Below, in pieces: positions 3,001 to 60,812 of a stretch of 64,000 nt of DNA. Under the pieces are notes generated by a model. That model did not search any database. It had not been told where the DNA came from and saw only the letters and a program-made list of their open reading frames with translations. The stretch is from NCBI GenBank assembly GCA_964016885.1, contig OZ024760.1, forward strand, positions 30,442,001 through 30,506,000. The letters run 5' to 3'. Position 1 is the first letter of the stretch; every line of letters starts with the position of its first letter. Made by a program: the position numbers and the translations under genes. Source of the DNA: Eledone cirrhosa (Eukaryota).

Positions 3001-3423
3001 TAATGTAATGTAATGTAATGTAATGTGTAATGTAATGTAATGTGTAATGTAATGTAATGTATAATGTAATGTAATGTAATGTGTAATGTAATGTAATGTA
3101 ATGTGTAATGTATTGTAATGTAATGTAATGTGCAATGTAATGTAATGTAATGTAATGTATAATGTAATGTAATGTAATGTGTAATGTAATGTAATGTAAT
3201 GTAATGTAATGTGTAATGTAACGTAATGTAATGTAATGTGTAATGTAATGTAATGTAATGTAATGTGTAATGTAATGTAATGTAATGTAATGTGTAATGT
3301 AATGTATTGTAATGTAATGTAATTGTTTCTAATTTAGGCACAAGGTCAGCAATTACCCTGTGCATTACTGGTACTTTATTTTATCGACCGCGTAAGGATG
3401 AAAAGCAAAGTCAACCTCGGTGG

Positions 3424-3432
3424 GATTTGAAC
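3424..3432 (-). promoter_or_regulatory. Pol III internal promoter B box (GTTCAAATC) of the SINE; equivalent site in all 12 copies
   Basis: Exact match to GTTCRANNC on the minus strand. Copy 11 has GTTCAAGTC. Confidence 0.85.
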
Positions 3433-3485
3433 TCAGATCGTAAAGGGACGTAACTATGCTGGAAAGCATGGCGTCCGACCCTCTA

Positions 3486-3497
3486 CCGATACTGCCA
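3486..3497 (-). promoter_or_regulatory. Pol III internal promoter A box (TGGCAGTATCGG) of the SINE
   Basis: Approximate match to the TRGCNNARYNGG consensus, 10 nt from the element 5' end and about 53 nt upstream of the B box. Mutated to TGGTTATATCGG in copy 9. Confidence 0.7.
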
Positions 3498-4735
3498 ATC
3501 CACCGCCGTTTGTAATGTAATGTAATGTAATGCAATGTAATGTAACGTAATGTAATGTAATGTAATGTAATGTAATGTAATGTGTAATGTAATGTGATGT
3601 AATGTAATGTAATGTAATGTAACGTAATGTAATGTAATGTAATGTAATGTAATGTAATGTAATGTAGTGAAAATGTAATGTAATGTGTAATGTAATGTGT
3701 AACGTAATGTAATGTGTAATGTAATGTAATGTAATGTAATGTAATGTAATGTAATGTAATGTGTAATGTAATGTAATGTAATGTAATGTTTAATGTAATG
3801 TAACGTAATGTAATGTAATGTAATGTTTAATGTAATGTAATGTAATGTAACGTGCAATGTAATGTAATGTAATGTAATGTGTAATGTAAAGTAATGTATA
3901 ATGTAATGTAATGTAATGTAATGTGTAATGTAATGTAATGTAATGTAAAGTAATGTAATGTAATGTAATGTAATGTAATGTGTAATGTAATGTAATGTAA
4001 AGTAATGTAATGTGTAGTGTAATGTAATTTAATGTAATGTAGCGTAATGTGTAATGTAGTGTAATGTAATATAATGTTTAATGTAAAGTAACGTAATGTA
4101 ATGTAATGTAATGTGTAATGTAATGTAATGTAATGTGTAATGTAATGTAATGTAATGTAATGTAATGTAATGTGTAATGTGTAATGTAATGTAATGTAAT
4201 GTAATGTAATGTTATGTAATGTAATGTAGTGTAATGTAATGTAATGCAACGTAATATAATGTAATGTAATGTAATGTAATGTGTAATGTAATGTAATGTA
4301 ATGTGTAATGTAATGTAATGTAATGTGTAATGTAATGTAATGTAATGTGTAATGTAATGTAATGTAATGTGTAATGTAATGTAATGTGTAATGTAATGTA
4401 ATGTTATGTAATGTAATGTATAATGTAATGTAATGTAATGTAATGTAATGTGTAATGTAATGTAATGTAGTGTAATGTATAATGTAATGTAATGTGTAAT
4501 GTAATGTAATGTAATGTGTAATGTAATGTAATGTAATGTAATGTAATGTGCAATGTAATGTAATGTAATGTAATGTGTAATGTAATGTAATGTATAATGT
4601 AATGTAATGTAATGTACTGTGTAATGTAATGTAATGTAATGTGTAATGTAATGTAATGTAATGTAATGTAATGTAATGTGTAATGTAATGTAATGTAATG
4701 TAATGTGTAATGTAATGTATCGTAATGTAATGTAA

Positions 4736-4920
4736 TTGTTTCTAATTTAGGCACAAGGTCAGCAATTACCCTGTGCATTACTGGTACTTTATTTTATCGA
4801 CCCCGTAAGGATGAAAAGCAAAGTCAACCTCGGTGGGATTTGAACTCAGATCGTAAAGGGACGTAACTATGCTGGAAAGCATGGCGTCCGACCCTCTACC
4901 GATACTGCCAATCCACCGCC
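4736..4920 (-). mobile_element. tRNA-derived SINE, copy 2 (HOR type B)
   Basis: Matches copy 1 except for GACCCCGT. Flanks are GTATCGTAAT on the left and GTTTGTGATG on the right. Confidence 0.88.
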
Positions 4921-7900: not shown

Positions 7901-8339
7901 AATGTAATGTAATGTAATGTGTAATGTAATGTAATGTAATGTAATGTAATGTGTAATGTAATGTAATGTAATGTAATGTAATGTGTAATGTAATGTAATG
8001 TAATGTAATGTGTAATGTAATGTAATGTAATGTAATGTAATGTGTAATGTAATGTAATGTGTAATGTAATGTAATGTATAATGTAATGTAATGTAATGTG
8101 TAATGTAATGTAATGTAATGTGTAATGTATTGTAATGTAATGTAATGTGCAATGTAATGTAATGTAATGTAATGTATAATGTAATGTAATGTAATGTGTA
8201 ATGTAATGTAATGTAATGTAATGTAATGTGTAATGTAACGTAATGTAATGTAATGTGTAATGTAATATAATGTAATGTAATGTGTAATGTAATGTAATGT
8301 AATGTAATGTGTAATGTAATGTATTGTAATGTAATGTAA

Positions 8340-8524
8340 TTGTTTCTAATTTAGGCACAAGGTCAGCAATTACCCTGTGCATTACTGGTACTTTATTTTA
8401 TCGACCGCGTAAGGATGAAAAGCAAAGTCAACCTCGGTGGGATTTGAACTCAGATCGTAAAGGGACGTAACTATGCTGGAAAGCATGGCGTCCGACCCTC
8501 TACCGATACTGCCAATCCACCGCC
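8340..8524 (-). mobile_element. tRNA-derived SINE, copy 3 (type A)
   Basis: Same sequence and immediate flanks as copy 1. Confidence 0.88.
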
Positions 8525-11281
8525 GTTTGTAATGTAATGTAATGTAATGCAATGTAATGTAACGTAATGTAATGTAATGTAATGTAATGTAATGTAATGT
8601 AATGTGTAATGTAATGTGATGTAATGTAATGTAATGTAATGTAACGTAATGTAATGTAATGTAATGTAATGTAATGTAATGTAATGTAGTGAATATGTAA
8701 TGTAATGTGTAATGTAATGTGTAACGTAATGTAATGTGTAATGTAATGTAATGTAATGTAATGTAATGTAATGTAATGTAATGTAATGTGTAATGTAATG
8801 TAATGTAATGTAATGTTTAATGTAATGTAACGTAATGTAATGTAATGTAATGTTTAATGTAATGTAATGTAATGTAACGTGCAATGTAATGTAATGTAAT
8901 GTAATGTGTAATGTAAAGTAATGTATAATGTAATGTAATGTAATGTAATGTGTAATGTAATGTAATGTAATGTAAAGTAATGTAATGTAATGTAATGTAA
9001 TGTAATGTGTAATGTAATGTAATGTAAAGTAATGTAATGTGTAATGTAACGTAATGTAATGTAATGTAATGTGTAATGTAATATAATGTAATGTAATGTA
9101 ATGTGTAATGTAATGTAATGTGTAATGTAATGTAATGTAATGTAATGTAATGTAATGTAATGTAATGTAATGTAATGTGTAATGTAATGTAATGTAATGT
9201 AATGTGTAATGTAATGTAATGTAATGTAATGTAATGTGTAATGTAATGTAATGTGTAATGTAATGTAATGTAATGTAATGTAATGTAATGTAATGTGTAA
9301 TGTAATGTAATGTAATGTGTAATGTAATGTAATGTAATGTAATGTAATGTAATGTAATGTAATTTAATGTAATGTAATGTAATGTAATGTAATGTAATGT
9401 GTAATGTAAAGTAATGTATAATGTAATGTAATGTAATGTAATGTGTAATGTAATGTAATGTAATGTAATGTAATGTAATGTGTAATGTAATGTAATGTAA
9501 TGTAATGTGTAATGTAACGTAATGTAATGTAATGTAATGTGTAATGTAATGTAATGTGTAATGTAATGTAATGTAATGTAATGTAATGTGTAATGTAATG
9601 TAATGTAATGTAATGTGTAATGTAATGTAATGTAATGTAATGTAATGTAATGAAATGTAATGTGTAATGTGTAATGCAATGTAATGTAATGTAATGTAAT
9701 GTAATGTAATGTAATGTAATGTAATGTAATGTAATGTAATGTAATGTAATGTAATGTAATGTGTAATGTAATGTGATGTAATGTAATGTAGTGTAATGTA
9801 ATGCAATGTAATGTAATGTAATATAATGTAATGTAATGTAATGTAATGTAATGTAATGTAATGTAATGTAATGTAATGTGTAATGTAACGTAATGTAATG
9901 TGTAATGTAATATAATGTAATGTAATATGTAATGTAATGTAATGTTTAATGTAATGTAATGTAATATAATGTAATATAATGTAATGTATAATGTAATGGA
10001 ATGTAATGTAATGTAATGTAATGCAATGTGTAATGTAATGTAATGTAATATAATGTTTAATGTAATGTAACGTAATGTAATGTAATGTAATGTGTAATGT
10101 AATGTAATGTAATGTAATGTAATGTAATGTAATGTAATGTAATGTAATGTGTAATGTAATGTAATGTAATGTAATGTGTAATGTAATGTAACGTAATGTA
10201 ATGTGTAATGTGTAATGTAATTTAATGTAAAGTAATGTAAGGTAATGTAATGTAATGTAACGTAATGTAATGTAATATGTAATGTAATGTAATGTAATGT
10301 AATGTAATGTAATGTAATGTAATGTAATGTAATGTAATGTGTAATGTAATGTAATGTAATGTAATGTAATGTAATGTGTAATGTAATGTAATGTGTAATG
10401 TAATGTAATGTAATGTAATATAATGTAATATAATGTAATGTATAATGTAATGTAATGTAATGCAATGTGTAAGGTAATGTAATGTAATGTAATGTAATGT
10501 AATGTAAGGTAATGTGTAATGTGTAATGTAATGTAATGTAAAGTAATGTAATGTGTAGTGTAATGTAATTTAATGTAATGTAGCGTAATGTGTAATGTAG
10601 TGTAATGTAATATAATGTTTAATGTAAAGTAACGTAATGTAATGTAATGTAATGTGTAATGTAATGTAATGTAATGTGTAATGTAATGTAATGTAATGTA
10701 ATGTAATGTAATGTGTAATGTGTAATGTAATGTAATGTAATGTAATGTAATGTTATGTAATGTAATGTAGTGTAATGTAATGTAATGCAACGTAATATAA
10801 TGTAATGTAATGTAATGTAATGTGTAATGTAATGTAATGTAATGTGTAATGTAATGTAATGTAATGTGTAATGTAATGTAATGTAATGTGTAATGTAATG
10901 TAATGTAATGTGTAATGTAATGTAATGTGTAATGTAATGTAATGTTATGTAATGTAATGTATAATGTAATGTAATGTAATGTAATGTAATGTGTAATGTA
11001 ATGTAATGTAGTGTAATGTATAATGTAATGTAATGTGTAATGTAATGTAATGTAATGTGTAATGTAATGTAATGTAATGTAATGTAATGTGCAATGTAAT
11101 GTAATGTAATGTAATGTGTAATGTAATGTAATGTATAATGTAATGTAATGTAATGTACTGTGTAATGTAATGTAATGTAATGTAATGTGTAATGTAATGT
11201 AATGTAATGTAATGTAATGTAATGTGTAATGTAATGTAATGTAATGTAATGTGTAATGTAATGTATCGTAATGTAATGTAA

Positions 11282-11466
11282 TTGTTTCTAATTTAGGCAC
11301 AAGGTCAGCAATTACCCTGTGCATTACTGGTACTTTATTTTATCGACCCCGTAAGGATGAAAAGCAAAGTCAACCTCGGTGGGATTTGAACTCAGATCGT
11401 AAAGGGACGTAACTATGCTGGAAAGCATGGCGTCCGACCCTCTACCGATACTGCCAATCCACCGCC
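11282..11466 (-). mobile_element. tRNA-derived SINE, copy 4 (type B)
   Basis: Same sequence and immediate flanks as copy 2, 6546 bp downstream of it. Confidence 0.88.
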
Positions 11467-14400
11467 GTTTGTGATGTAATGTAATGTAATGTAATGTTTA
11501 ATGTAATGTAATGTAATATGTAATGTAATGTAATGTAATGAAAATGTAATATAATGTGTAATGTAATGTGTAATGTAATGCAATGTGTAATGTAATGTAA
11601 TGTAATGTAATGTAATGTGTAATGTAATGTAATGTAATGTAATGTAATGTAATGTAATGTAATGTTTAATGTAATGTAACGTAATGTAATGTAATGTAAT
11701 GTTTAATGTAATGTAATGTAACGTAACGTAATGTAATGTAATGTAATGTAATGTAATGTAATGTAATGTAATAAAATGAAGTGTAATGTAATCTAATGAA
11801 ATGTAATGTAATGTGTAATGTAATGTAGTGTAGTGTAATGTAATGAAATGTAATGTAATGTAATGTAATGTAATGTAATGTAATGTAATGTAATGTAATG
11901 TAATGTAATGTGATGTAATGTAACGTGTAATGTAATGTAATGTAATGTGAAATGTAATGTAATGTAATGTAATATGTAATGTAATGTAATGTTTAATGTA
12001 ATTTAATGTAATGTAATGTAACGTGTAATATAATGTAAAGTAATGTAATGTAATGTAATATAATGTAATATAATGTAATGTCTAAAGTAATGTAATGTAA
12101 TGTAATGTAATGCAATGTGTAATGTAATGTAATGTAATGTAATGTAATGTAATGTAATGTGTAATGTAATGTAATGTAATATAATGTTTAATGTAATGTA
12201 ACGTAATGTAATGTAATGTAATGTGTAATGTAATGTAATGTAATGTAATGTAATGTAATGTGTAATGTAATGTAATGTAATGTAATGTGTAATGTAATGT
12301 AATGTAATGTGTAATGTGTAATGTGTAATGTGTAATGTAATTTAATGTAATGTAATGTAATGTAATGTAACGTAACGTAATGTAATGTAATGTAATGTAA
12401 TGTAATGTAATGTAATGTAATGTAATGTAATGTGTAATGTAATGTAATGTAATGTAACGTAATATAACGTGTAATGTAATGTAATGTAATGTAATGTAAT
12501 GTTATGTAATGTAATGTAATGTAATGTAATGTAATGTAATGTGTAATGTAATGTAATGTAATGTAATGTAATGTAATGTGTAATGTAATGTAATGTGTAA
12601 TGTAATGTGTAATGTAATGTAACGTAATGTAATGTAATGTAATGTAATGTAATATGTAATGTAATGTAATGTAATGTAATTTAATGTAATGTCTAATGTA
12701 ATGTAATGTAATGTAATGTAATGTAATGTGTAATGTAATGTAATGTTAAGTAATGTAATGTGTAATGTAATGCAATGTAATATAATGTAATGTGTCATGT
12801 AGTGTAACGTAATGTAATGTAATGTAATGTAATATGTAATGTAATGTAATGTGTAATGTAATGTAATGTAATGTAATGTGTAATGTAATGTAATGTAATG
12901 TAATGTAATGTAATGTAATGTGTAATGTAATGTAATGTAATGTAATGTGTAATGTAATGTAATGTGTAACGTAACGTAATGTAATGTAATGTAATGTAAT
13001 GTAATGTAATGTAATGTAATGTAATGTAATGTAATGTAATGTGTAATGTAATGTAATGTAATGTAATGTAATGTGTAATGTAATGTAATGTAATCTAATG
13101 TAATGTGTAATGTAATGTAATGTAATGTAATGTAATGTAATGTAATGTAATGTAATGTAATGTAATGTGTAACGTAATGTAATGTAATGTAATGTAACGT
13201 AATGTAATGTAATGTAATGTAATGTAATGTAATGTGTAATGTAATGTAATGTAATGTAATGTAATGTAAAGTAATGTAATGAAATGTAATGTGTAATGTG
13301 TAATGCAATGCAATGTAATGTAATGTAATGTAATGTAATGTAATGTAATGTAATGTAATGTAATGTAATGTAATGTAATGTAATGTAATGTAATGTGTAA
13401 TGTAATGTAATGTAATGTAATGTAATGTAATGTAATGCAATGCAATGTAATGTAATGTAATGTAATGTAATGTAATGTAATGTAATGTAATGTAATGTGT
13501 AATGTGTAATGTAATGTAATGTAATGTAATGTGTATTGTAATGTAATGTAATGTGTAATGTAATGTAATGTAATGTGTAATGTAATGTAATGTGTAATGT
13601 AATGTAATGTGTAATGTAATGTAATGTTATGTAATGTAATGTATAATGTAATGTAATGTAATGTAATGTGTAATGTAATGTAATGTTATGTAATGTAATG
13701 TATAATGTAATGTAATGTAATGTAATATGTAATGTAATGTAATGTGTAATGTAGTGTAATGTAATGTAATGTAATATGTAATGTAATGTAATGTAATGTA
13801 ATGTGTAATGTAATGTAATGTAATGTGATGTAACGTGCAATGTAATGTAATGTAATGTAATGTGTAATGTAATGTAATGTAATGTAATGTAATGCAATGT
13901 AATGTAATGTAATGTAATGTAATGTAATGTAATGTAATGTAATGTAATGTAATGTGTAATGTAATGTAATGTAATATAATGTAATGTAATGTAATGTAAT
14001 GTGTAATGTAATGTAATGTAATGTAATGTGCAATGTAATGTGATGTAATGTAATGTGTAATGTAAAGTAATGTATAATGTAATGTAATGTAATGTAATGT
14101 AATGTGTAATGTAATGTAATGTAATGTAATGTGTAATGTAATGTAATGTAATGTGTAATGTAATGTAATGTAATGTAATGTGTAATGTAATGTAATGTAA
14201 TGTAATGTAATGTAATGTAATGTAATGTGTAATGTAATGCAATGTAATGTAATGTAATGCAATGTAATGTAATGTAATGTAATGTAATGTAATGTAATGA
14301 AATGTGATGTGTAATGTGTAATGCAATGTAATGTAACGTAATGTAATGTAATGTAATGTAATGTAATGTAATGTAATGTAATGTAATGTAATGTAATGTT

Positions 14401-14885
14401 ATGTAATGTAATGTAATGTAATGTAATGTAATGTAATATGTAATGTAATGTAATGTAATGTAATGTGTAATGTAATGTAATGTAATGTAATGTAATGTGT
14501 AATGTAATGTAATGTAATGTAATGTAATGTGTAATGTAATGTAATGTAATGTAATGTGTAATGTAATGTAATGTAATGTAATGTAATGTGTAATGTAATG
14601 TAATGTGTAATGTAATGTAATGTATAATGTAATGTAATGTAATGTGTAATGTAATGTAATGTAATGTGTAATGTATTGTAATGTAATGTAATGTGCAATG
14701 TAATGTAATGTAATGTAATGTATAATGTAATGTAATGTAATGTGTAATGTAATGTAATGTAATGTAATGTAATGTGTAATGTAACGTAATGTAATGTAAT
14801 GTGTAATGTAATGTAATGTAATGTAATGTGTAATGTAATGTAATGTAATGTAATGTGTAATGTAATGTATTGTAATGTAATGTAA

Positions 14886-15070
14886 TTGTTTCTAATTTAG
14901 GCACAAGGTCAGCAATTACCCTGTGCATTACTGGTACTTTATTTTATCGACCGCGTAAGGATGAAAAGCAAAGTCAACCTCGGTGGGATTTGAACTCAGA
15001 TCGTAAAGGGACGTAACTATGCTGGAAAGCATGGCGTCCGACCCTCTACCGATACTGCCAATCCACCGCC
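14886..15070 (-). mobile_element. tRNA-derived SINE, copy 5 (type A)
   Basis: Same as copy 3, 6546 bp downstream of it. Confidence 0.88.
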
Positions 15071-17827
15071 GTTTGTAATGTAATGTAATGTAATGCAATG
15101 TAATGTAACGTAATGTAATGTAATGTAATGTAATGTAATGTAATGTAATGTGTAATGTAATGTGATGTAATGTAATGTAATGTAATGTAACGTAATGTAA
15201 TGTAATGTAATGTAATGTAATGTAATGTAATGTAGTGAATATGTAATGTAATGTGTAATGTAATGTGTAACGTAATGTAATGTGTAATGTAATGTAATGT
15301 AATGTAATGTAATGTAATGTAATGTAATGTAATGTGTAATGTAATGTAATGTAATGTAATGTTTAATGTAATGTAACGTAATGTAATGTAATGTAATGTT
15401 TAATGTAATGTAATGTAATGTAACGTGCAATGTAATGTAATGTAATGTAATGTGTAATGTAAAGTAATGTATAATGTAATGTAATGTAATGTAATGTGTA
15501 ATGTAATGTAATGTAATGTAAAGTAATGTAATGTAATGTAATGTAATGTAATGTGTAATGTAATGTAATGTAAAGTAATGTAATGTGTAATGTAACGTAA
15601 TGTAATGTAATGTAATGTGTAATGTAATATAATGTAATGTAATGTAATGTGTAATGTAATGTAATGTGTAATGTAATGTAATGTAATGTAATGTAATGTA
15701 ATGTAATGTAATGTAATGTGTAATGTAATGTAATGTAATGTAATGTGTAATGTAATGTAATGTAATGTAATGTAATGTGTAATGTAATGTAATGTGTAAT
15801 GTAATGTAATGTAATGTAATGTAATGTAATGTAATGTGTAATGTAATGTAATGTAATGTGTAATGTAATGTAATGTAATGTAATGTAATGTAATGTAATG
15901 TAATTTAATGTAATGTAATGTAATGTAATGTAATGTAATGTGTAATGTAAAGTAATGTATAATGTAATGTAATGTAATGTAATGTGTAATGTAATGTAAT
16001 GTAATGTAATGTAATGTAATGTGTAATGTAATGTAATGTAATGTAATGTGTAATGTAACGTAATGTAATGTAATGTAATGTGTAATGTAATGTAATGTGT
16101 AATGTAATGTAATGTAATGTAATGTAATGTGTAATGTAATGTAATGTAATGTAATGTGTAATGTAATGTAATGTAATGTAATGTAATGTAATGAAATGTA
16201 ATGTGTAATGTGTAATGCAATGTAATGTAATGTAATGTAATGTAATGTAATGTAATGTAATGTAATGTAATGTAATGTAATGTAATGTAATGTAATGTAA
16301 TGTGTAATGTAATGTGATGTAATGTAATGTAGTGTAATGTAATGCAATGTAATGTAATGTAATATAATGTAATGTAATGTAATGTAATGTAATGTAATGT
16401 AATGTAATGTAATGTAATGTGTAATGTAACGTAATGTAATGTGTAATGTAATATAATGTAATGTAATATGTAATGTAATGTAATGTTTAATGTAATGTAA
16501 TGTAATATAATGTAATATAATGTAATGTATAATGTAATGGAATGTAATGTAATGTAATGTAATGCAATGTGTAATGTAATGTAATGTAATATAATGTTTA
16601 ATGTAATGTAACGTAATGTAATGTAATGTAATGTGTAATGTAATGTAATGTAATGTAATGTAATGTAATGTAATGTAATGTAATGTAATGTGTAATGTAA
16701 TGTAATGTAATGTAATGTGTAATGTAATGTAACGTAATGTAATGTGTAATGTGTAATGTAATTTAATGTAAAGTAATGTAAGGTAATGTAATGTAATGTA
16801 ACGTAATGTAATGTAATATGTAATGTAATGTAATGTAATGTAATGTAATGTAATGTAATGTAATGTAATGTAATGTAATGTGTAATGTAATGTAATGTAA
16901 TGTAATGTAATGTAATGTAATGTGTAATGTAATGTAATGTGTAATGTAATGTAATGTAATGTAATATAATGTAATATAATGTAATGTATAATGTAATGTA
17001 ATGTAATGCAATGTGTAAGGTAATGTAATGTAATGTAATGTAATGTAATGTAAGGTAATGTGTAATGTGTAATGTAATGTAATGTAAAGTAATGTAATGT
17101 GTAGTGTAATGTAATTTAATGTAATGTAGCGTAATGTGTAATGTAGTGTAATGTAATATAATGTTTAATGTAAAGTAACGTAATGTAATGTAATGTAATG
17201 TGTAATGTAATGTAATGTAATGTGTAATGTAATGTAATGTAATGTAATGTAATGTAATGTGTAATGTGTAATGTAATGTAATGTAATGTAATGTAATGTT
17301 ATGTAATGTAATGTAGTGTAATGTAATGTAATGCAACGTAATATAATGTAATGTAATGTAATGTAATGTGTAATGTAATGTAATGTAATGTGTAATGTAA
17401 TGTAATGTAATGTGTAATGTAATGTAATGTAATGTGTAATGTAATGTAATGTAATGTGTAATGTAATGTAATGTGTAATGTAATGTAATGTTATGTAATG
17501 TAATGTATAATGTAATGTAATGTAATGTAATGTAATGTGTAATGTAATGTAATGTAGTGTAATGTATAATGTAATGTAATGTGTAATGTAATGTAATGTA
17601 ATGTGTAATGTAATGTAATGTAATGTAATGTAATGTGCAATGTAATGTAATGTAATGTAATGTGTAATGTAATGTAATGTATAATGTAATGTAATGTAAT
17701 GTACTGTGTAATGTAATGTAATGTAATGTAATGTGTAATGTAATGTAATGTAATGTAATGTAATGTAATGTGTAATGTAATGTAATGTAATGTAATGTGT
17801 AATGTAATGTATCGTAATGTAATGTAA

Positions 17828-18012
17828 TTGTTTCTAATTTAGGCACAAGGTCAGCAATTACCCTGTGCATTACTGGTACTTTATTTTATCGACCCCGTAA
17901 GGATGAAAAGCAAAGTCAACCTCGGTGGGATTTGAACTCAGATCGTAAAGGGACGTAACTATGCTGGAAAGCATGGCGTCCGACCCTCTACCGATACTGC
18001 CAATCCACCGCC
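17828..18012 (-). mobile_element. tRNA-derived SINE, copy 6 (type B)
   Basis: Same as copy 4, 6546 bp downstream of it. Confidence 0.88.
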
Positions 18013-21000
18013 GTTTGTGATGTAATGTAATGTAATGTAATGTTTAATGTAATGTAATGTAATATGTAATGTAATGTAATGTAATGAAAATGTAATATAA
18101 TGTGTAATGTAATGTGTAATGTAATGCAATGTGTAATGTAATGTAATGTAATGTAATGTAATGTGTAATGTAATGTAATGTAATGTAATGTAATGTAATG
18201 TAATGTAATGTTTAATGTAATGTAACGTAATGTAATGTAATGTAATGTTTAATGTAATGTAATGTAACGTAACGTAATGTAATGTAATGTAATGTAATGT
18301 AATGTAATGTAATGTAATATAATGAAGTGTAATGTAATGTAATGAAATGTAATGTAATGTGTAATGTAATGTAGTGTAGTGTAATGTAATGAAATGTAAT
18401 GTAATGTAATGTAATGTAATGTAATGTAATGTAATGTAATGTAATGTAATGTAATGTGATGTAATGTAACGTGTAATGTAATGTAATGTAATGTGAAATG
18501 TAATGTAATGTAATGTAATATGTAATGTAATGTAATGTTTAATGTAATTTAATGTAATGTAATGTAACGTGTAATATAATGTAAAGTAATGTAATGTAAT
18601 GTAATATAATGTAATATAATGTAATGTCTAAAGTAATGTAATGTAATGTAATGCAATGCAATGTGTAATGTAATGTAATGTAATGTAATGTAATGTAATG
18701 TAATGTAATGTAATGTGTAATGTAATGTAATGTAATATAATGTTTAATGTAATGTAACGTAATGTAATGTAATGTAATGTGTAATGTAATGTAATGTAAT
18801 GTAATGTAATGTAATGTGTAATGTAATGTAATGTAATGTAATGTGTAATGTAATGTAATGTAATGTGTAATGTGTAATGTGTAATGTGTAATGTAATTTA
18901 ATGTAATGTAATGTAATGTAATGTAACGTAACGTAATGTAATGTAATGTAATGTAATGTAATGTAATGTAATGTAATGTAATGTAATGTGTAATGTAATG
19001 TAATGTAATGTAACGTAATATAACGTGTAATGTAATGTAATGTAATGTAATGTAATGTTATGTAATGTAATGTAATGTAATGTAATGTAATGTGTAATGT
19101 AATGTAATGTAATGTAATGTAATGTAATGTGTAATGTAATGTAATGTGTAATGTAATGTGTAATGTAATGTAACGTAATGTAATGTAATGTAATGTAATG
19201 TAATATGTAATGTAATGTAATGTAATGTAATTTAATGTAATGTCTAATGTAATGTAATGTAATGTAATGTAATGTAATGTGTAATGTAATGTAATGTTAA
19301 GTAATGTAATGTGTAATGTAATGCAATGTAATATAATGTAATGTGTCATGTAGTGTATCGTAATGTAATGTAATGTAATGTAATATGTAATGTAATGTAA
19401 TGTGTAATGTAATGTAATGTAATGTAATGTGTAATGTAATGTAATGTAATGTAATGTAATGTAATGTAATGTGTAATGTAATGTAATGTAATGTAATGTG
19501 TAATGTAATGTAATGTGTAACGTAACGTAATGTAATGTAATGTAATGTAATGTAATGTAATGTAATGTAATGTAATGTAATGTAATGTAATGTGTAATGT
19601 AATGTAATGTAATGTAATGTAATGTGTAATGTAATGTAATGTAATCTAATGTAATGTGTAATGTAATGTAATGTAATGTAATGTAATGTAATGTAATGTA
19701 ATGTAATGTAATGTAATGTGTAACGTAATGTAATGTAATGTAATGTAACGTAATGTAATGTAATGTAATGTAATGTAATGTAATGTGTAATGTAATGTAA
19801 TGTAATGTAATGTAAAGTAATGTAATGAAATGTAATGTGTAATGTGTAATGCAATGCAATGTAATGTAATGTAATGTAATGTAATGTAATGTAATGTAAT
19901 GTAATGTAATGTAATGTAATGTAATGTAATGTAATGTGTAATGTAATGTAATGTAATGTAATGTAATGTAATGTAATGCAATGCAATGTAATGTAATGTA
20001 ATGTAATGTAATGTAATGTAATGTAATGTAATGTAATGTAATGTGTAATGTGTAATGTAATGTAATGTAATGTAATGTGTATTGTAATGTAATGTAATGT
20101 GTAATGTAATGTAATGTAATGTGTAATGTAATGTAATGTGTAATGTAATGTAATGTGTAATGTAATGTAATGTTATGTAATGTAATGTATAATGTAATGT
20201 AATGTAATGTAATGTGTAATGTAATGTAATGTTATGTAATGTAATGTATAATGTAATGTAATGTAATGTAATATGTAATGTAATGTAATGTGTAATGTAG
20301 TGTAATGTAATGTAATGTAATATGTAATGTAATGTAATGTAATGTGTAATGTAATGTAATGTAATGTGATGTAACGTGCAATGTAATGTAATGTAATGTA
20401 ATGTGTAATGTAATGTAATGTAATGTAATGTAATGCAATGTAATGTAATGTAATGTAATGTAATGTAATGTAATGTAATGTAATGTAATGTAATGTAATG
20501 TGTAATGTAATGTAATGTAATATAATGTAATGTAATGTAATGTAATGTGTAATGTAATGTAATGTAATGTAATGTGCAATGTAATGTGATGTAATGTAAT
20601 GTGTAATGTAAAGTAATGTATAATGTAATGTAATGTAATGTAATGTAATGTGTAATGTAATGTAATGTAATGTAATGTGTAATGTAATGTAATGTAATGT
20701 GTAATGTAATGTAATGTAATGTAATGTGTAATGTAATGTAATGTAATGTAATGTAATGTAATGTAATGTAATGTGTAATGTAATGCAATGTAATGTAATG
20801 TAATGCAATGTAATGTAATGTAATGTAATGTAATGTAATGTAATGAAATGTGATGTGTAATGTGTAATGCAATGTAATGTAACGTAATGTAATGTAATGT
20901 AATGTAATGTAATGTAATGTAATGTAATGTAATGTAATGTAATGTAATGTAATGTAATGTAATGTAATGTAATGTAATGTAATATGTAATGTAATGTAAT

Positions 21001-21377
21001 GTAATGTAATGTGTAATGTAATGTAATGTAATGTAATGTAATGTGTAATGTAATGTAATGTAATGTAATGTAATGTGTAATGTAATGTAATGTAATGTAA
21101 TGTGTAATGTAATGTAATGTAATGTAATGTAATGTGTAATGTAATGTAATGTGTAATGTAATGTAATGTATAATGTAATGTAATGTAATGTGTAATGTAA
21201 TGTAATGTAATGTGTAATGTATTGTAATGTAATGTAATGTGCAATGTAATGTAATGTAATGTAATGTATAATGTAATGTAATGTAATGTGTAATGTAATG
21301 TAATGTAATGTAATGTAATGTGTAATGTAATGTAATGTAATGTAATGTGTAATGTAATGTATTGTAATGTAATGTAA

Positions 21378-21562
21378 TTGTTTCTAATTTAGGCACAAGG
21401 TCAGCAATTACCCTGTGCATTACTGGTACTTTATTTTATCGACCGCGTAAGGATGAAAAGCAAAGTCAACCTCGGTGGGATTTGAACTCAGATCGTAAAG
21501 GGACGTAACTATGCTGGAAAGCATGGCGTCCGACCCTCTACCGATACTGCCAATCCACCGCC
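21378..21562 (-). mobile_element. tRNA-derived SINE, copy 7 (type A)
   Basis: Same as copy 5, 6492 bp downstream of it. Confidence 0.88.
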
Positions 21563-24279: not shown

Positions 24280-24464
24280 TTGTTTCTAATTTAGGCACAA
24301 GGTCAGCAATTACCCTGTGCATTACTGGTACTTTATTTTATCGACCCCGTAAGGATGAAAAGCAAAGTCAACCTCGGTGGGATTTGAACTCAGATCGTAA
24401 AGGGACGTAACTATGCTGGAAAGCATGGCGTCCGACCCTCTACCGATACTGCCAATCCACCGCC
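24280..24464 (-). mobile_element. tRNA-derived SINE, copy 8 (type B)
   Basis: Same as copy 6, 6452 bp downstream of it. Confidence 0.88.
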
Positions 24465-31682: not shown

Positions 31683-31866
31683 TTGTTCTAATTTAGGCAC
31701 AAGGTTAGCAATTACCCTGTGCATTACTGGTACTTTATTTTATCGACCCCGTAAGGAGGAAAAGCAAAGTCAACCTCGGTGGGATTTGAACTCAGATCGT
31801 AAAGGGACGTAACTATGCTGGAAAGCATGGCGTCCGACCCTCTACCGATATAACCAATCCACCGCG
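31683..31866 (-). mobile_element. tRNA-derived SINE, copy 9 (diverged paralogue of A/B)
   Basis: 184 bp, with a 1-bp deletion and several substitutions (AAGGTTAGC, AAGGAGGAAAAG, GATATAACC, CCGCG). It keeps the GTTT flank and the A/B-lineage alleles (CTAATTT, GAAAAGC, CGGTGGG). Confidence 0.86.
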
Positions 31867-34629: not shown

Positions 34630-34815
34630 TTGTTTCTACGTTAGGCACAAGGCCAGCAAATTACCCAGTGTATTACTGGTACTTTATTTTATCGACCCCG
34701 TAAGGATGAAAGGCAAAGTTAACCTCGGCGGGATTTGAACTCAGACTGTAAAGGGACGTAACTATGCTAGAAAACATGGCGTCCGACCCTCTACCGATAC
34801 TGCCAATCCACCGCC
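34630..34815 (-). mobile_element. tRNA-derived SINE, copy 10 (independent insertion)
   Basis: 186 bp with alleles CTACGTT, GGCCAGCAAATT, GAAAGGC, CGGCGGG, AGACTGT and GCTAGAAAAC. The right junction is CCGCC|ATGTA, with no GTTT. Confidence 0.86.
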
Positions 34816-34849
34816 ATGTAATGTAATGTAATGTAATGTAATGTAATGT

Positions 34850-42800: not shown

Positions 42801-43739
42801 AATGTAATGTAATGTAATGTGTAATGTTATGTAATGTAATGTAATGTAATGTGTAATGTAAGGTAATGTAATGTAATGCAATGTAATGTAATGTGTAATG
42901 TAATGTAATGTAATGTAATGTAATGTAATGTAATGTGTAATGTAAGGTAATGTAATGTAATGTAATGCAATATAATGTGTAATGTAATGTAATGAAATGT
43001 AATGTGTAAGTTAATGTAATGTAATGTAATGTGTAATGTAATGTGTAATGTAATGTAATGTAATGTAATGCAATATAATGTGTAATGTAATGAAATGTAA
43101 TGTGTAAGTTAATGTAATGTAATGTAATGTGTAATGTAATGTGTAATGTAATGTAATGTGATGTAATGTGTAATGTAATGTAATGTAATGTAATGTAATG
43201 TGTAATGTAATGTAATGTAATGTAATGTAATGTGTAATGTAAAGTAATGTAATGTAATGTGTAACGTAATGTAATGTAATGTAATATAATGTAATGTAAT
43301 GTAATGTAACGTGTAATGTGTAATGTAATGTAATGTAATGTAATGTAATGTAATGTGTAATGTAATGTAATGTAATGTAATGTAATGTAATGTAATGTAA
43401 TGTAATGTGTAATGTAATGTAATGTAATGTAATGTGTAATGAAATGTAATGTAATGTAATGTGTAATGTAATGTAATGTAATGTAATGTAATGTAATGTA
43501 ATGTGTAATGTAATGTAATGTAATGTAATGTAATGTATAATGTAATGTAATGTAATGTAATGTGTAATGTCATGTAATGTAATGTGTAATGTAATGTAAT
43601 GTAATGTATAATGTAAGGTAACGTAATGTAATGTAACGTAATGTAATGTGTAATATAATGTAATGTAATGTAATGTGTAATGTAATGTAATGTAATGTAA
43701 TGTAATGTGTATTGTAATGTAATGTAATGTAATGTAATG

Positions 43740-51400: not shown

Positions 51401-52029
51401 GTAATGTGTAATGTAATGTAATGTATAATGTAATGTAATGTAATGTAATGTAATGTGTAACGTAATGTGTAACGTAATGTAATGTAATGTAATGTAATGT
51501 AATGTAATGTGTAATGTGTAACGTGTAATGTAATGTAATGTAATGTAATGTAATGTAATGTAATGTAATGTGTAATGTAATGTAATGTAATGTAATGTAA
51601 TGTAATGTAATGTAATGTGTAATGTGTAACGTGTAATGTAATGTAATGTAATGTAATGTAATGTAATGTAATGTAATGTAATGTAATGTAATGTGTAATG
51701 TAATGTAATGTAATGTGTAATGTAATGTAATGTAATGTAATGTAATGTGAAATGTAATGTAATGTAATGTAATGTAATGTAATGTGTAATGTAATGTAAT
51801 GTAATGTAATGTAATGTCATGTCATGTAATGTGTAATGTAAGGTAATGTAATGTAATGCAATGTAATGTAATGTGTAATGTAATGTAATGTAATGTAATG
51901 TAATGTAATCTAATGTAATGTAATGTATTGTAATGTAATGTGTAATGTAATGTAATGTAATGTAATGTAATGTAATGTAATGTAATGTAATGTAATGTAA
52001 TGTAATGTGTAATGTAATGTAATGTAATG

Positions 52030-55000
52030 TAATGTGTAATTTCATTTAATGTAATGTAATGTAAGGTAATGTAATGTAATGCAATGTAATGTAATGTGTA
52101 ATGTAATGTAATGTAATGTAATCTAATGTAATGTAATGTAATGTATTGTAATGTAATGTAATGTAATGTAATGTAATGTAATGTAATGTAATGTAATGTA
52201 ATGTAATCTAATGTAATGTAATGTATTGTAATGTAATGTGTAATGTAATGTAATGTAATGTAATGTAATGTAATGTAATGTAATGTGTAATGTGTAATGT
52301 AATGTAATGTAATATAATGTAACGTAATGTAATGTAATGTAATGTAATGTAATGTGTAATGTAATGTGTAACGTAATGTAATGTAATGTAATATAATCTA
52401 ATGTAATATAATGTAATGTGTAAAGTAATGTTATGTGATATAATGTAACGTGTAATGTAATGTAATATAATGTAATGTAATGTAATGTAATGTAATGTCT
52501 AATGTAATGTAATGTAATGTAATGTAATGTGTAATGTAATGTAATGTAATGTAATTTGTAATGTAATGTGTAATGTAATGTAATGTAACGTAATGTAATG
52601 TAATGTGTAATATAATGTAATGTAATGTAATGTAATGTAATGTGTAATGTAATGTAATGTGTAATGTAATGTATAATGTAATGTAATGTAATGTAATGTA
52701 ATGTAATGTAACGTAATGTAATGTAATGTAATGTAATGTGTAATGTAATGTAAAGTAATGTAATGTGTAATGTAATGTAATGTAATATAATGTAATGTAA
52801 TATAATGTAATGTAATGTGTAATGTAATGTAATGTAATGTAATGTAATGTAATGTGTAATGTAATATAATGTAATGTAATGTAATGTAATGTAATGTGTA
52901 ATGTAATGTAATGTAATGTAATGTAATGTAATGTGTAATGTAATGTAATGTGTAATGTCATGTAATGTAATGTAATGTGTAATGTATGTAATGTAATGTA
53001 ATGTGTAATGTAAGGTCACGTAATGTAATGTAATGTAAAGTGTAATGTAATGTAATGTAATGTAAAGTAATGTGTAATGTAATGTAATGTAATGTAATGT
53101 AATGTAATGTAATGTAATGTAATGTGTAATGTAATGTAATGTAATGTAATGTAATGTAATGTATGGTAATGTAATGTAATGTAATGTAATGTGTAATGTA
53201 ATGTAATGTAATGTAATGTAATGTAATGTGTAATGTAATGTAATGTAATGTAATGTAATGTAATGTGTAATGTAATGTAATGTAATGTAATGTAATGTCT
53301 AACGTAATGTATGTAATGTAATGTAATGTGTAATGTAATGTAATGTAATGTAATGTGTAATGTAATGTGTAATATAATTTAATGTAATGTAATGTGTAAT
53401 GTAATGTGTAACGTAATGTAATGTAATGTACTGTGTAATGTAATGTAATGTAATGTAATGTACAGTAATGTAATGTATAATGTAATGTAATGTATAATGT
53501 AATGTAATGTAATGTAATGTAATGTGTAACGTAATGTAATGTAATGTAATGTAATGTAATGTAATGTTATGTGTAATATGTAACGTGTAATGTAATGTAA
53601 TGTAATGTAATGTAATGTAATGTGTAATGTAATGTAATGTAATGTAATGTAATGTAATGTGTAATGTAATGCAATGTAATGTAATGTAATGTGTAATGTA
53701 ATGTAATGTAATGTGAAATGTTATGTAATGTAATGTAATGTAATGTGTAATGTAATGTAATGCAATGTGTAATGTAATGTAATGTAATGTAATGTAATGT
53801 AATGTAATGTGTAATGTAATGTAATGTAATGTAATGTGTAATGTAATGTAATGTAATGTAATGTAATGTGTAACGTAATGCAATGTAATGTAATGTAATA
53901 TAATGTAATGTAATGTGTAATGTAATGTAATGTAATGTAATGTAATGTAATGTAATGTAATGTAATGTAATGTGTAATGTCATGTCATGTAATGTAATGT
54001 AATGTGTAATGTAATGTAATGTAATGTAATATGTAATGTAAGGTAATGTAATGTAATGTAATGTAATGTAATGTAATGTAATGTAATGTAATGTGTAATG
54101 TAATGTAATATAATGTAATGTGTAATTTAATGTAATGTAATGAAATGTAATGTAATGTAATGTAATGTTTAATGTAATGTAATGTAATGTAATGTAATGT
54201 AATGTAATGTAATGTAATGTGTAATGTGTAATGTAATGTAATGTAATGTAATGTAATGTGTAATGTAACGTAATGTAATGTAATGTAATGTAATGTATGG
54301 TAATGTAATGTAATGTAATGTGTAATGTAATGTAATGTAATGTAATGTAATGTAATGTAATGTAATGTAATGTAATGTAATGTGTAATGTCATGTAATGT
54401 AATATGAAGAGTAATGTAATGTAATGTAATGTAATGTAATGTAACGTGTAATGTAACGTAATGTAATGTAATCTAACGTGTAATGTAATGTAATGTAATG
54501 TCTAATGTAATGTAATGTAATGTAATGTGTAATGTAATGTGTAATGTAATGTAATGTAATGTAATATAATCTAATGCAATGTAATGTAATGTGTAAAGTA
54601 ATGTAATATAATGTAACGTGTAATGTAATGTAATGTAATGTAATGTAATGTAATGTAATGTAATGTGTAATGTAATGTAATGTGTAATGTAATGTAATGT
54701 ACTGTGTAATGTCATGTAATGTAATATGAAGTGTAATGTAATGTAATGTAATGTAATGTAATGTAACGTGAATATGTAACGTAATGTAATGTAATCTAAT
54801 GTGTAATGTAATGTAATGTAATGTAATGTAATGTAATGTAATGTCTAGTGTAATGTAATGTAATGTAATGTAATGTGTAATGTAATGTAATGTAATGTAA
54901 TGTAATGTAATGTGTAATGTAATGTGTAATGTAATGTAATGTAATGTAATGTAATGTAATGTAATGTAATGTAATGTAATGTGTAATGTAATGTGTAATG

Positions 55001-57990
55001 TAATGTAATGTAATGTAATGTGTAATTTCATTTAATGTAATGTAATGTAAGGTAATGTAATGTAATGCAATGTAATGTAATGTGTAATGTAATGTAATGT
55101 AATGTAATCTAATGTAATGTAATGTAATGTATTGTAATGTAATGTAATGTAATGTAATGTAATGTAATGTAATGTAATGTAATGTAATGTAATCTAATGT
55201 AATGTAATGTATTGTAATGTAATGTGTAATGTAATGTAATGTAATGTAATGTAATGTAATGTAATGTAATGTGTAATGTGTAATGTAATGTAATGTAATA
55301 TAATGTAACGTAATGTAATGTAATGTAATGTAATGTAATGTGTAATGTAATGTGTAACGTAATGTAATGTAATGTAATATAATCTAATGTAATATAATGT
55401 AATGTGTAAAGTAATGTTATGTGATATAATGTAACGTGTAATGTAATGTAATATAATGTAATGTAATGTAATGTAATGTAATGTCTAATGTAATGTAATG
55501 TAATGTAATGTAATGTGTAATGTAATGTAATGTAATGTAATTTGTAATGTAATGTGTAATGTAATGTAATGTAACGTAATGTAATGTAATGTGTAATATA
55601 ATGTAATGTAATGTAATGTAATGTAATGTGTAATGTAATGTAATGTGTAATGTAATGTATAATGTAATGTAATGTAATGTAATGTAATGTAATGTAACGT
55701 AATGTAATGTAATGTAATGTAATGTGTAATGTAATGTAAAGTAATGTAATGTGTAATGTAATGTAATGTAATATAATGTAATGTAATATAATGTAATGTA
55801 ATGTGTAATGTAATGTAATGTAATGTAATGTAATGTAATGTGTAATGTAATATAATGTAATGTAATGTAATGTAATGTAATGTGTAATGTAATGTAATGT
55901 AATGTAATGTAATGTAATGTGTAATGTAATGTAATGTGTAATGTCATGTAATGTAATGTAATGTGTAATGTATGTAATGTAATGTAATGTGTAATGTAAG
56001 GTCACGTAATGTAATGTAATGTAAAGTGTAATGTAATGTAATGTAATGTAAAGTAATGTGTAATGTAATGTAATGTAATGTAATGTAATGTAATGTAATG
56101 TAATGTAATGTGTAATGTAATGTAATGTAATGTAATGTAATGTAATGTATGGTAATGTAATGTAATGTAATGTAATGTGTAATGTAATGTAATGTAATGT
56201 AATGTAATGTAATGTGTAATGTAATGTAATGTAATGTAATGTAATGTAATGTGTAATGTAATGTAATGTAATGTAATGTAATGTCTAACGTAATGTATGT
56301 AATGTAATGTAATGTGTAATGTAATGTAATGTAATGTAATGTGTAATGTAATGTGTAATATAATTTAATGTAATGTAATGTGTAATGTAATGTGTAACGT
56401 AATGTAATGTAATGTACTGTGTAATGTAATGTAATGTAATGTAATGTACAGTAATGTAATGTATAATGTAATGTAATGTATAATGTAATGTAATGTAATG
56501 TAATGTAATGTGTAACGTAATGTAATGTAATGTAATGTAATGTAATGTAATGTTATGTGTAATATGTAACGTGTAATGTAATGTAATGTAATGTAATGTA
56601 ATGTAATGTGTAATGTAATGTAATGTAATGTAATGTAATGTAATGTGTAATGTAATGCAATGTAATGTAATGTAATGTGTAATGTAATGTAATGTAATGT
56701 GAAATGTTATGTAATGTAATGTAATGTAATGTGTAATGTAATGTAATGCAATGTGTAATGTAATGTAATGTAATGTAATGTAATGTAATGTAATGTGTAA
56801 TGTAATGTAATGTAATGTAATGTGTAATGTAATGTAATGTAATGTAATGTAATGTGTAACGTAATGCAATGTAATGTAATGTAATATAATGTAATGTAAT
56901 GTGTAATGTAATGTAATGTAATGTAATGTAATGTAATGTAATGTAATGTAATGTAATGTGTAATGTCATGTCATGTAATGTAATGTAATGTGTAATGTAA
57001 TGTAATGTAATGTAATATGTAATGTAAGGTAATGTAATGTAATGTAATGTAATGTAATGTAATGTAATGTAATGTAATGTGTAATGTAATGTAATATAAT
57101 GTAATGTGTAATTTAATGTAATGTAATGAAATGTAATGTAATGTAATGTAATGTTTAATGTAATGTAATGTAATGTAATGTAATGTAATGTAATGTAATG
57201 TAATGTGTAATGTGTAATGTAATGTAATGTAATGTAATGTAATGTGTAATGTAACGTAATGTAATGTAATGTAATGTAATGTATGGTAATGTAATGTAAT
57301 GTAATGTGTAATGTAATGTAATGTAATGTAATGTAATGTAATGTAATGTAATGTAATGTAATGTAATGTGTAATGTCATGTAATGTAATATGAAGAGTAA
57401 TGTAATGTAATGTAATGTAATGTAATGTAACGTGTAATGTAACGTAATGTAATGTAATCTAACGTGTAATGTAATGTAATGTAATGTCTAATGTAATGTA
57501 ATGTAATGTAATGTGTAATGTAATGTGTAATGTAATGTAATGTAATGTAATATAATCTAATGCAATGTAATGTAATGTGTAAAGTAATGTAATATAATGT
57601 AACGTGTAATGTAATGTAATGTAATGTAATGTAATGTAATGTAATGTAATGTGTAATGTAATGTAATGTGTAATGTAATGTAATGTACTGTGTAATGTCA
57701 TGTAATGTAATATGAAGTGTAATGTAATGTAATGTAATGTAATGTAATGTAACGTGAATATGTAACGTAATGTAATGTAATCTAATGTGTAATGTAATGT
57801 AATGTAATGTAATGTAATGTAATGTAATGTCTAGTGTAATGTAATGTAATGTAATGTAATGTGTAATGTAATGTAATGTAATGTAATGTAATGTAATGTG
57901 TAATGTAATGTGTAATGTAATGTAATGTAATGTAATGTAATGTAATGTAATGTAATGTAATGTAATGTGTAATGTAATGTGTAATGTAAT
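52030..57990. repeat. 2986-bp near-perfect tandem duplication
   Basis: AATTTCATTT at 52038/55024 and GAAGAG at ~54406/57392. Identical ORF translations are offset by exactly 2986 (52123/55109, 53299/56285, 54169/57155). Confidence 0.92.
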
Positions 57991-59328
57991 GTAATGTAAC
58001 GTAATGTAATGTAATGTAACGTAATGTAATGTAATGTGTAATATAATGTAATGTAATGTAATGTAATGTAATGTGTAATGTAATGTAATGTGTAATGTAA
58101 TGTAATGTATAATGTAATGTAATGTAATGTAACGTAACGTAATGTAATGTAATGTAATGTAATGTAATGTAATGTAATGTAATGTGTAATGTAATATTAT
58201 GTGATGTAATGTGTAATGTAATGTAATGTAATGTAATGTAATGTAATGTAATGTAATATAATGTAATGTAATATAATGTAATGTAATGTGTAATGTAATG
58301 TAATGTAATGTAATGTAATGTAATGTAATATAATGTGTAATGTAATGTAATGTAATGTAATGTGTCATGTAATGTAATGTAATGTGTAATGTAATGTAAT
58401 GTAATGTAATGTAATGTAATGTAATGTGTAATGTAAGGTAACGTAATGTAATGTAATGTAATGTGTAATGTAATGTAATGTAAAGTAATGTGTAATGTAA
58501 TGTAATGTAATGTAATGTAATGTGTAATGTAATGTAATGTAACGTAATGTAATGTAATGTAATATGTAATGTAATGTAATGTAATGTAATGTAATGTGTA
58601 ATGTAATGTAATGTAACGTAATGTAATGTAATGTAATATGTAATGTAATGTAATGTGTCATGTAATGTAATGTAATGTGTAATGTAATGTAATGTAATGT
58701 AATGTAATGTGTAATGTAAGGTAACGTAATGTAATGTAATGTAATGTGTAATGTAATGTAATGTAAAGTAATGTGTAATGTAATGTGATGTAATGTAATG
58801 TAATGTGTAATGTAATGTAATGTAATGTAACGTAATGTAATGTAATGTAATATGTAATGTAATGTAATGTAATGTAATGTAATGTAATGTGTAATGTAAT
58901 GTAATGTAATGTAATGTAATGTAATGTCTAATGTAATGTATGTAATGTAATGTAATGTGTAATGTAATGTAATGTAATGTGTAATGTAATGTGTAATATA
59001 ATGTAATGTAATGTAATGTAATGTAATGTAATGTGTAATGTAATGTGTAACGTAATGTAATGTAACGTAATGTAATGTAATGTGTAATGTAATGTAATGT
59101 AATGTAATGTAATGTACAGTAGTGTAATGTGTAATGTAATGTAATGTGTAATGTAATGTAATGTATAATGTAATGTAATGTAATGTAATGTAATGTAATG
59201 TGTAACGTAATGTAATGTAATGTAATGTAATGTAATGTAATGTGATGTGTAATGTGTAACGTGTAATGTAATGTAATGTAATGTAATGTAATGTGTAATG
59301 TAATGTAATGTAACGTAATGTAATATAA

Positions 59329-59513
59329 TTGTTTCTACTTTAGGCACAAGGCCAGCAAATACCCAGTGCATTACTGGTACTTTATTTTATCGACCCCGTA
59401 AGGATGAAAGGCAAAGTCAACCTCGGCGGGACTTGAACTCAGATCGTAAAGGGACGTAGCTATGCTGGAAAGCATGGCGTCCGACCCTCTACCGATACTG
59501 CCAATCCACCGCC
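59329..59513 (-). mobile_element. tRNA-derived SINE, copy 11 (independent insertion)
   Basis: 185 bp with alleles CTACTTT, GGCCAGCAAAT, GAAAGGC and CGGCGGGACTTGAAC. The right junction is CCGCC|TAATG. Confidence 0.86.
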
Positions 59514-60627
59514 TAATGTAATGTAATATGTAATGTAATGTAATGTAATGTAATGTAATGTGTAATGTAATGTAATGTAACGTAATGTAATGTAATGTAA
59601 TATGTAATGTAATGTAATGTGTCATGTAATGTAATGTAATGTGTAATGTAATGTAATGTAATGTAATGTAATGTGTAATGTAAGGTAACGTAATGTAATG
59701 TAATGTAATGTGTAATGTAATGTAATGTAAAGTAATGTGTAACGTAATGTAATATAATGTAATGCAATGTGTAATGTAATGTAATGTAATGTAATGTAAT
59801 GTGTAATGTAATGTAATGGAATGTAATGTGAAATGTAAAGTAATGTAATGTAATGTAATGTGTAATGTAATGTAATGTAATGTAATGTGTAATGTTATGT
59901 AATGTAATGCAATGTAATGTGTAATGTAACGTAATGTAATGTGTAATGTAATGTAATGTAATATAGTGTAATGTAATGTGTAATGTAATGTAATGTAATG
60001 TAATGTAATGTAATGTGTAATGTAATGTAATGTAATGTAATGTAATGTAATGTAATGTAATGTAATGTGTAATGTAATGTAATGTAATGTAATGTAATGT
60101 GTAATGTAATGTAATGTAATGTAATGTAATGTAATATAATGTAATGTGTAATGTAATGTAATGTAATGTAATGTAATATAATGTAATGTGTAATGTAATG
60201 TAATGTAATGTAATGTAATGTAATGTGTAATGTAATGTAATGTAATGTAATATGTAATGTAATGTAATGTAATGTAACGTGTAACGTAAGGTAACGTAAT
60301 GTAATGTAATGTAATGTAATGTAATGTATGGTAATGTAATGTAATGTAATGTGTAATGTAATGTAATGTAATGTAATGTAATGTAATGTAATGTGTAATG
60401 TAATGTAATGTAATGCGTAATGTAAGGTGTAACGTTATGTAATGTAATGTAATGTAAAGTGTAATATAATGTAATGTAATGTAATATGTAATGTAATATA
60501 ATATAATATAATATAATATAATATAATATAATATAATATAATATAATACAATATAATATACTATGTAATGTAATGTAATGTAATGTAATGTAATGTTTAA
60601 TGTAATGTAATGTGTAAAGTAATGTAA

Positions 60628-60812
60628 TTGTTTCTACTTTAGGCACAAGGCCAGCAATTACCCAGTACATTACTGGTACTTTAATTTATCGACCCCGTAA
60701 GGCTGAAAGGCAAAGTCAACCTCGGCGGGATTTGAACTCAGATCGTAAAGGCACGTAACTATGCTGGAAAGCATGGCGTCCGACCCTCTACCGATACTGC
60801 CAATCCACCGCC
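60628..60812 (-). mobile_element. tRNA-derived SINE, copy 12 (independent insertion)
   Basis: 185 bp with alleles CTACTTT, CCCAGTACAT, GGCTGAAAGG and AAAGGCACG. The right junction is CCGCC|AATGTG. Confidence 0.86.

Follow-up and report, generated by a model that had tools for sequence, protein, structure and literature searches.

We analyzed a 64-kb stretch of Eledone cirrhosa DNA (the window; contig OZ024760.1) in which 12 copies of a short interspersed element (SINE) lie embedded in a simple satellite. The entire window (1–64000, plus strand) is a single (AATGT)n array, equivalent to (TAATG)n/(CATTA)n (Tandem Repeats Finder: period 5, 12,072 copies, 83% matches), and outside the elements TAAT occurs 10,506 times versus twice for ATTA. 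With copy 1 as query, BLAST against the window returned 12 matches on a single strand at 92–100% identity (copies 1–12: 3323–3507, 4736–4920, 8340–8524, 11282–11466, 14886–15070, 17828–18012, 21378–21562, 24280–24464, 31683–31866, 34630–34815, 59329–59513, and 60628–60812), preceded by 3.3 kb of plain satellite. All copies are 184–186 bp long and lie on the minus strand, and this orientation call is correct because the RNA polymerase III (Pol III) box motifs, an A-box-like motif and a B box, read on that strand in all six distinct haplotypes tested. At the 3′ end, 11 of the 12 copies pass from AACAA into TTA-CATTA, and copy 11 passes into TTA-TATTA. The 5′ junctions form four classes, matching four internal lineages that are 7–20 differences apart. 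BLAST and junction comparison thus bear out what the first-pass annotation had described from the letters alone: 12 minus-strand copies in one 3′ register with a variant in copy 11, and four 5′ junction classes paired with four internal haplotypes.

The element is not confined to the satellite. We matched contigs from public sequencing runs (X1, X5, and X4) to copy 11 with 15 bp of flank on either side (59314–59528). Parts of copy 11 occurred in 20 of the 24 listed public runs, representing 14 studies and many organisms, and one of these (organism A) contained up to 94% of its words. No RNA data set was on record as containing it, which has no bearing on expression. Matching contigs numbered 164,454 (X1), 181,938 (X5), and 12,050 (X4), and their loose ends at both termini were long and heterogeneous (agreement 0.40–0.45). 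The element is therefore a very abundant family dispersed genome-wide. In run X21, 0 of 12.8 million reads matched, whereas run X8, with the same organism code, contained half the words. Being short (185 bp), non-coding, and high-copy (two organisms, >160,000 matching contigs each), with variable flanks, Pol III boxes, and a simple-repeat tail, the element is a SINE, as first proposed. Additional loose ends at 59358/59362 indicate that other family members bear an extra segment there; the window copies are one subfamily without it. The earlier description of all copies as full length consequently holds within this subfamily and fails for the family. The share of depth taken by the short form is larger in organism A than in B.

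Internally, the A-box-like motif lies at position 11 (one mismatch) and the B box at position 76 in all six haplotypes, by matching to motif patterns. Structure prediction gives the first 90 nt a fold-back in which the 5′ end is base-paired (z −2.15, whole element). ARAGORN found no tRNA gene, and an Rfam search with copy 1 returned nothing up to an E value of 5; the Pol III boxes would suggest a tRNA origin for the head. Aligned by hand, the 49 nt following the B box agree with the UCON3 SINE domain in 38–39 of 49 columns (~80%) for the three rows compared (lamprey, rattlesnake, and acoel) of the 21 in Fig. S2 of PMC7245038. Judged from sequence, we describe the element as a SINE with a UCON3-like central domain directly after a tRNA-like head. 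Two small hairpins are predicted in the 3′ 50 nt (e.g. 59329–59378, minus strand), just before the tail. This is the position at which stringent long interspersed elements (LINEs) recognize their RNA.

The usual tail of the family is (TTA)n. In all three informative runs, the top consensus of the 3′ loose ends terminated in (AAT)n on the plus strand, with heterogeneous flanks beyond it, and clipping began at 59325, where copy 11 departs from a TTA tail. Mean depth 8–15 bp into the 3′ satellite flank fell to 0.7%, 0.4%, and 0.2% of body depth, and on the 5′ side flank depth was 0.012–0.025% of body depth by 59522–28. Together, the (AAT)n loose ends and the low satellite-flank depth exclude (CATTA)n as the usual tail, so that the (CAUUA)n tail proposed in the first-pass annotation is not borne out; by our own bound, these depths are compatible with a one-unit CATTA tail in up to ~2–5% of copies. 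The variant base noted earlier in copy 11 fits the (TTA)n tail of the family followed by a variant target unit. Head-to-tail neighbors are common: among the 15 joints listed (of 728), nine connect a 5′ end (59505–59514) with a like-oriented tail end, and 12 lead back to the tail end without a change of orientation. Such joints fit landing in the tails of other copies, and also template re-copying.

Twelve copies do not equal twelve insertion events. Copies 1–8 sit in a ~6.5-kb higher-order repeat (offsets ~6,546) that spans ~1–25.3 kb and holds two SINE copies per unit; two of its units (8340–21377, unstranded) agree at 6,463 of 6,470 aligned bases, with 98 gap positions. Copies 3, 5, and 7 equal copy 1 (lineage 1, sub-haplotype A), and copies 4, 6, and 8 equal copy 2 (sub-haplotype B), which differs from copy 1 once. 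Copy 9 is an older, diverged duplicate of the same lineage: it has the junctions of copy 1 and 7–8 differences from copies 1–2, and measures 184 bp owing to a 1-bp deletion near its 3′ end, with its first base altered. Lineage 1 therefore comprises nine copies in three sub-haplotypes (4 + 4 + 1), the product of one insertion multiplied by array duplication. The left flanks of copies 1, 2, and 9 score 105–118 (null 95th percentile 109), and the 12 cross-lineage flank pairs score 44–103 on both sides. Because flank scores are high within lineage 1 alone and its junctions are shared, the window records at most four insertions. The other three lineages are represented by copies 10, 11, and 12 (lineages 2, 3, and 4, respectively). 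Four non-CpG variants of copy 10 occur at 13–72%, and one variant of copy 12 at 24%, among the dispersed copies of organism A (40 of 73 variant rows), which favors distinct source elements over drift inside the array. Four lineages from about four independent insertions, the minimum first estimated, are thus likely, supported by the lineage flanks, the 5′ phases, and the copy 10 variants.

Elsewhere in the array, a 2,986-bp tandem duplication (51997–54982 and 54983–57968) shows 0 mismatches and 0 gaps and is either very recent or an assembly artefact. Tracts of (ATAAT)n (35–69 bp), consisting of G-to-A variant units, are confined to the half of the array at 33462–61140; copies 10 and 12 lie 115 bp and 65 bp, respectively, from nearby tracts. 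The SINE-sense (minus) strand of the window contains just 21 TTTT runs, with none from 34.8 kb to the end.

Candidate target-site duplications of 16–20 bp are present in three of the four lineages, each repeating a variant satellite unit on both sides of the element. In lineage 1, a 17-bp candidate with a rare variant unit on the 3′-end side (3307–3323, plus strand) exactly matches 3510–3526, which begins after two extra bases at the 5′ junction. The 16-bp candidate of copy 11 (59311–59326, plus strand; partner 59514–59529) is identical at 15 of 16 positions, with the variant unit in both, and the 20-bp candidate of copy 12 (60609–60628, plus strand; partner 60813–60832) at 19 of 20, a weak case given that the shared variant is common. 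Copy 10 has pure satellite flanks and an ambiguous duplication length of 7, 12, 17, or 22 bp. Variant units repeated across insertions suggest that the satellite predates the SINEs, and we regard the evidence that the satellite existed first, each insertion duplicating its own site, as moderate. The reverse proposal of the first-pass annotation, a satellite grown out of SINE tails, is not borne out by these duplications in three of four lineages or by the plain satellite ahead of copy 1.

Taking these observations together, we propose that a dispersed (TTA)n-tailed SINE probably inserted four times into existing satellite, primed at TAAT, and that one of these insertions then multiplied to nine. 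Insertion would proceed by target-primed reverse transcription using the machinery of a partner LINE, with the nicked TAAT end of the satellite likely pairing with AUUA of the tail, and each event would yield a 16–20 bp target-site duplication; array duplication would afterwards have multiplied one insertion to nine copies. The cDNA of a (UUA)n tail is (TAA)n, for which a nick on the TAATG strand offers up to four matching bases and one on the CATTA strand two. This difference in pairing between the two satellite strands predicts both the orientation and the register of the copies. Over the real array, the share of nick sites giving the observed orientation is 96% at ≥3 bp of pairing and 99% at ≥4 bp, and the 3′ overlap is 4 bp in three lineages and 2 bp in copy 11. 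Four same-orientation events alone would arise by chance in 1 of 8 cases, as was calculated at the outset. Tail-to-target pairing in target-primed reverse transcription, also part of the first-pass annotation, is accordingly supported as the likely cause of the fixed orientation and register. An alternative to priming by microhomology would be an endonuclease preference for the same TAAT/ATTA motif. Priming through short overlaps has precedent: CR1, L2, and RTE elements show 3′ junction overlaps of one to several bp, which the portion of PMC6007223 consulted ascribes to pairing at priming. Compared with random DNA of 60–68% AT, the array has 6–10x the density of TAAT ends, which predicts mild SINE enrichment without a dedicated system. 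On the best explanation, the satellite presents ordinary landing sites, densely packed and facing one way, for which satellite-specific machinery is unneeded.

Several points weigh against this proposal. At 2 bp of pairing, the overlap seen in copy 11, the orientation bias is just 59%. According to the parts of the sources consulted, microhomology in animal RTE elements is limited to 1–2 bp (PMC6007223), and Bov-B targets rarely resemble the 3′ repeats, a role for pairing in Bov-B being doubted (PMC13295347). Exactly one TTA is retained in three of the four lineages, yet most dispersed copies apparently reach at least TTAT; pairing alone leaves priming on the first TTA unit unaccounted for. 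All four lineages also belong to one subfamily, which may only mean that the array is young or turns over fast. In the contig data, an unlisted A>G variant at ≥3% in both organism-A runs could fall in the tail; organism A is taken as the host or a close relative by assumption; summed contig depth is not copy number; and variants derive from 40 of 73 rows and loose ends from a set that leaves aside 922 others. The three tests of the target-site duplications were all designed after the flanks had been seen, and their results disagree. A loose first test, allowing slack at alignment edges, gave P ~0.03, and a likelihood test was not significant (P 0.41–0.42). A third test, in which the two flanks had to have a non-canonical 5- or 7-mer in common, was passed by 82 of 10,292 random left flanks for lineage 1 (0.008), 315 of 10,292 for copy 11 (0.03), and 5,351 of 10,292 for copy 12 (0.52), giving a joint P of 1e-4 to 3e-4 when one flank is kept as observed and 0.012 when both are random. 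The duplication of copy 12 is thus weak, and copy 10 is uninformative.

The shared subfamily and the single TTA retained in three of four lineages would be accounted for by a feedback loop. Here, Pol III read-through of embedded copies would produce transcripts ending in (CAUUA)n, which would pair with nicked (TAATG)n, and a CATTA-tailed sub-lineage would home back into the satellite, inheriting its fixed 3′ join. Copies 11 and 12 could conceivably act as the source genes, their read-through tails carrying satellite units and guiding a self-reinforcing SINE-satellite loop, with array duplication multiplying the sub-lineage further: both have intact Pol III boxes and lack an internal TTTT, and the next TTTT on the same strand lies 24.6 and 25.9 kb downstream, respectively. 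One-unit CATTA tails, possible within the bound given above, would also suit it. However, copies of the family usually end in (TTA)n, an internal TTTT is present in lineage 1 and copy 10, and copy 10 shares its variants with dispersed copies instead of with its neighbors in the array. Moreover, the candidate duplications begin at the element end or no more than 17–20 bp from it, so that at most 2–3 transduced units would fit, and none in copy 11. Homing or feedback, raised in the first-pass annotation, found no evidence in the window and the public contigs, surveyed without a genome-wide enrichment measure, and we consider the loop unlikely as an explanation of the array, and copies 11 and 12 equally unlikely as its source.

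Fixed orientation and register would equally follow if the partner LINE carried an endonuclease specific for TAA/TAAT simple repeats, in the manner of Dong, and took the SINE into (TAA)n tracts as well as this satellite, with part of the genome-wide "tail" being target DNA; the (AAT)n consensus of the loose ends could then derive from the target. Families of non-LTR elements (LTR, long terminal repeat) that target microsatellites are known, including Dong on TAA (PMC3812793, as far as consulted). Against such a specialist, dispersed copies have A-rich 5′ loose ends that vary and lack a clean repeat (agreement 0.41–0.44), the family is very abundant, and none of the four insertions falls inside the (ATAAT)n tracts at 33–61 kb. 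No LINE, nor any fragment of one, was found in the 64 kb of satellite. This alternative appears improbable. A single old insertion ancestral to all 12 copies, spread and diverged by array turnover with erosion of its 5′ flank, would supply one cause for the orientation, the register, and the shared subfamily, and array duplication is demonstrated for nine copies. Yet the 5′ phases differ, each with its own candidate duplication, flank similarity across lineages is absent, and the four non-CpG variants of copy 10 match common dispersed variants, which makes a common ancestral insertion quite improbable. Growth of the satellite from SINE tails is the weakest account and highly improbable: the satellite unit, which adjoins the 3′ end, does equal a TTA tail with a few bases inserted, and retroposon tails can seed microsatellites (PMC3812793, in part), but each copy has this satellite on either side, insertions are bracketed by repeated variant units, and the family ends in (TTA)n, with <1% of depth continuing into satellite.

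The element shares features with several known systems and differs from each. The eel elements UnaL2 and UnaSINE1 carry a (TGTAA)n tail on the sense strand; this is the same five-letter repeat, whereas here the SINE sense strand meets its complement and the family tail is (TTA)n. In the material consulted for CR1, L2, RTE, and their SINEs (PMC6007223, which also cites a priming proposal for AfroSINE), simple-repeat tails likewise overlap the start of the target duplication and the first-strand site is tied to the tail; here, however, insertion is into a long satellite, with an overlap of 4 bp in three of four lineages versus 1–2 bp in animal RTE elements. Dong, Koshi, Kibi, Waldo, and Mino resemble our element in inserting into a simple repeat at a fixed register, but as described in the consulted part of PMC3812793 they are autonomous and sequence-specific, whereas this SINE lies mostly outside satellite. 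Because <1% of body depth runs into satellite, we rejected a Dong/Koshi-type specialist of (TAATG)n, a rejection that holds for (TAATG)n targets. Squamate SINE-derived satellites (PMC10702118, in part) share the tandem amplification of a SINE, which here occurs as a passenger of a 6.5-kb unit; their monomer is SINE sequence, whereas this SINE is inserted in an unrelated simple satellite. A SINE-derived satellite was also set aside because the repeating monomer is a 5-mer, found to the left and right of each copy.

As for a family name, the tRNA-head SINEs with a UCON3 domain (Kojima 2020, PMC7245038) show the same order of head, domain, and tail, with the 49-nt domain after the B box; the hagfish members shown there end in other repeats, and by hand comparison alone the head and 3′ region of our element matched no named family. 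MetaSINE was rejected, as three of four element motifs were absent from the supplements searched and the passage returned was, by eye, a different domain (PMC4824008). Element motifs had no match in the readable supplement files of PMC9115989, whose remaining files may still bear on the name. Nin, Deu, and Inv domains were considered by description only. Neither the sequence of the SINE family nor the (TAATG)n satellite was found in the literature; Repbase, Dfam, and SINEBase lay outside the search, and the family may already be named. Octopus records may contain a similar SINE sequence, a lead only, for which literature searches found nothing. A 20-base pattern from the 3′ end matched 29 metagenome, one viral, and eight prokaryote-genome loci and nothing in plasmids; none of the 38 aligned beyond 52 bases, and we dropped them as unrelated short matches, the named ones being Pelagibacter.

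The element behaves like other ordinary SINEs that have a simple-repeat tail and use 3′ microhomology, and is not a new class of element. If the feedback loop were true, a SINE would reprogram its own target choice through a captured tail, of which we found no description in the literature searched. On the interpretation we favor, the array would be a natural example of tail-target pairing, in which a strand-asymmetric satellite lets a microhomology of a few bases fix both orientation and register. Long-read assemblies of satellite arrays could thereby be used to assay the pairing needed by LINE reverse transcriptases, and SINE inserts date and mark the duplications of the arrays that carry them.

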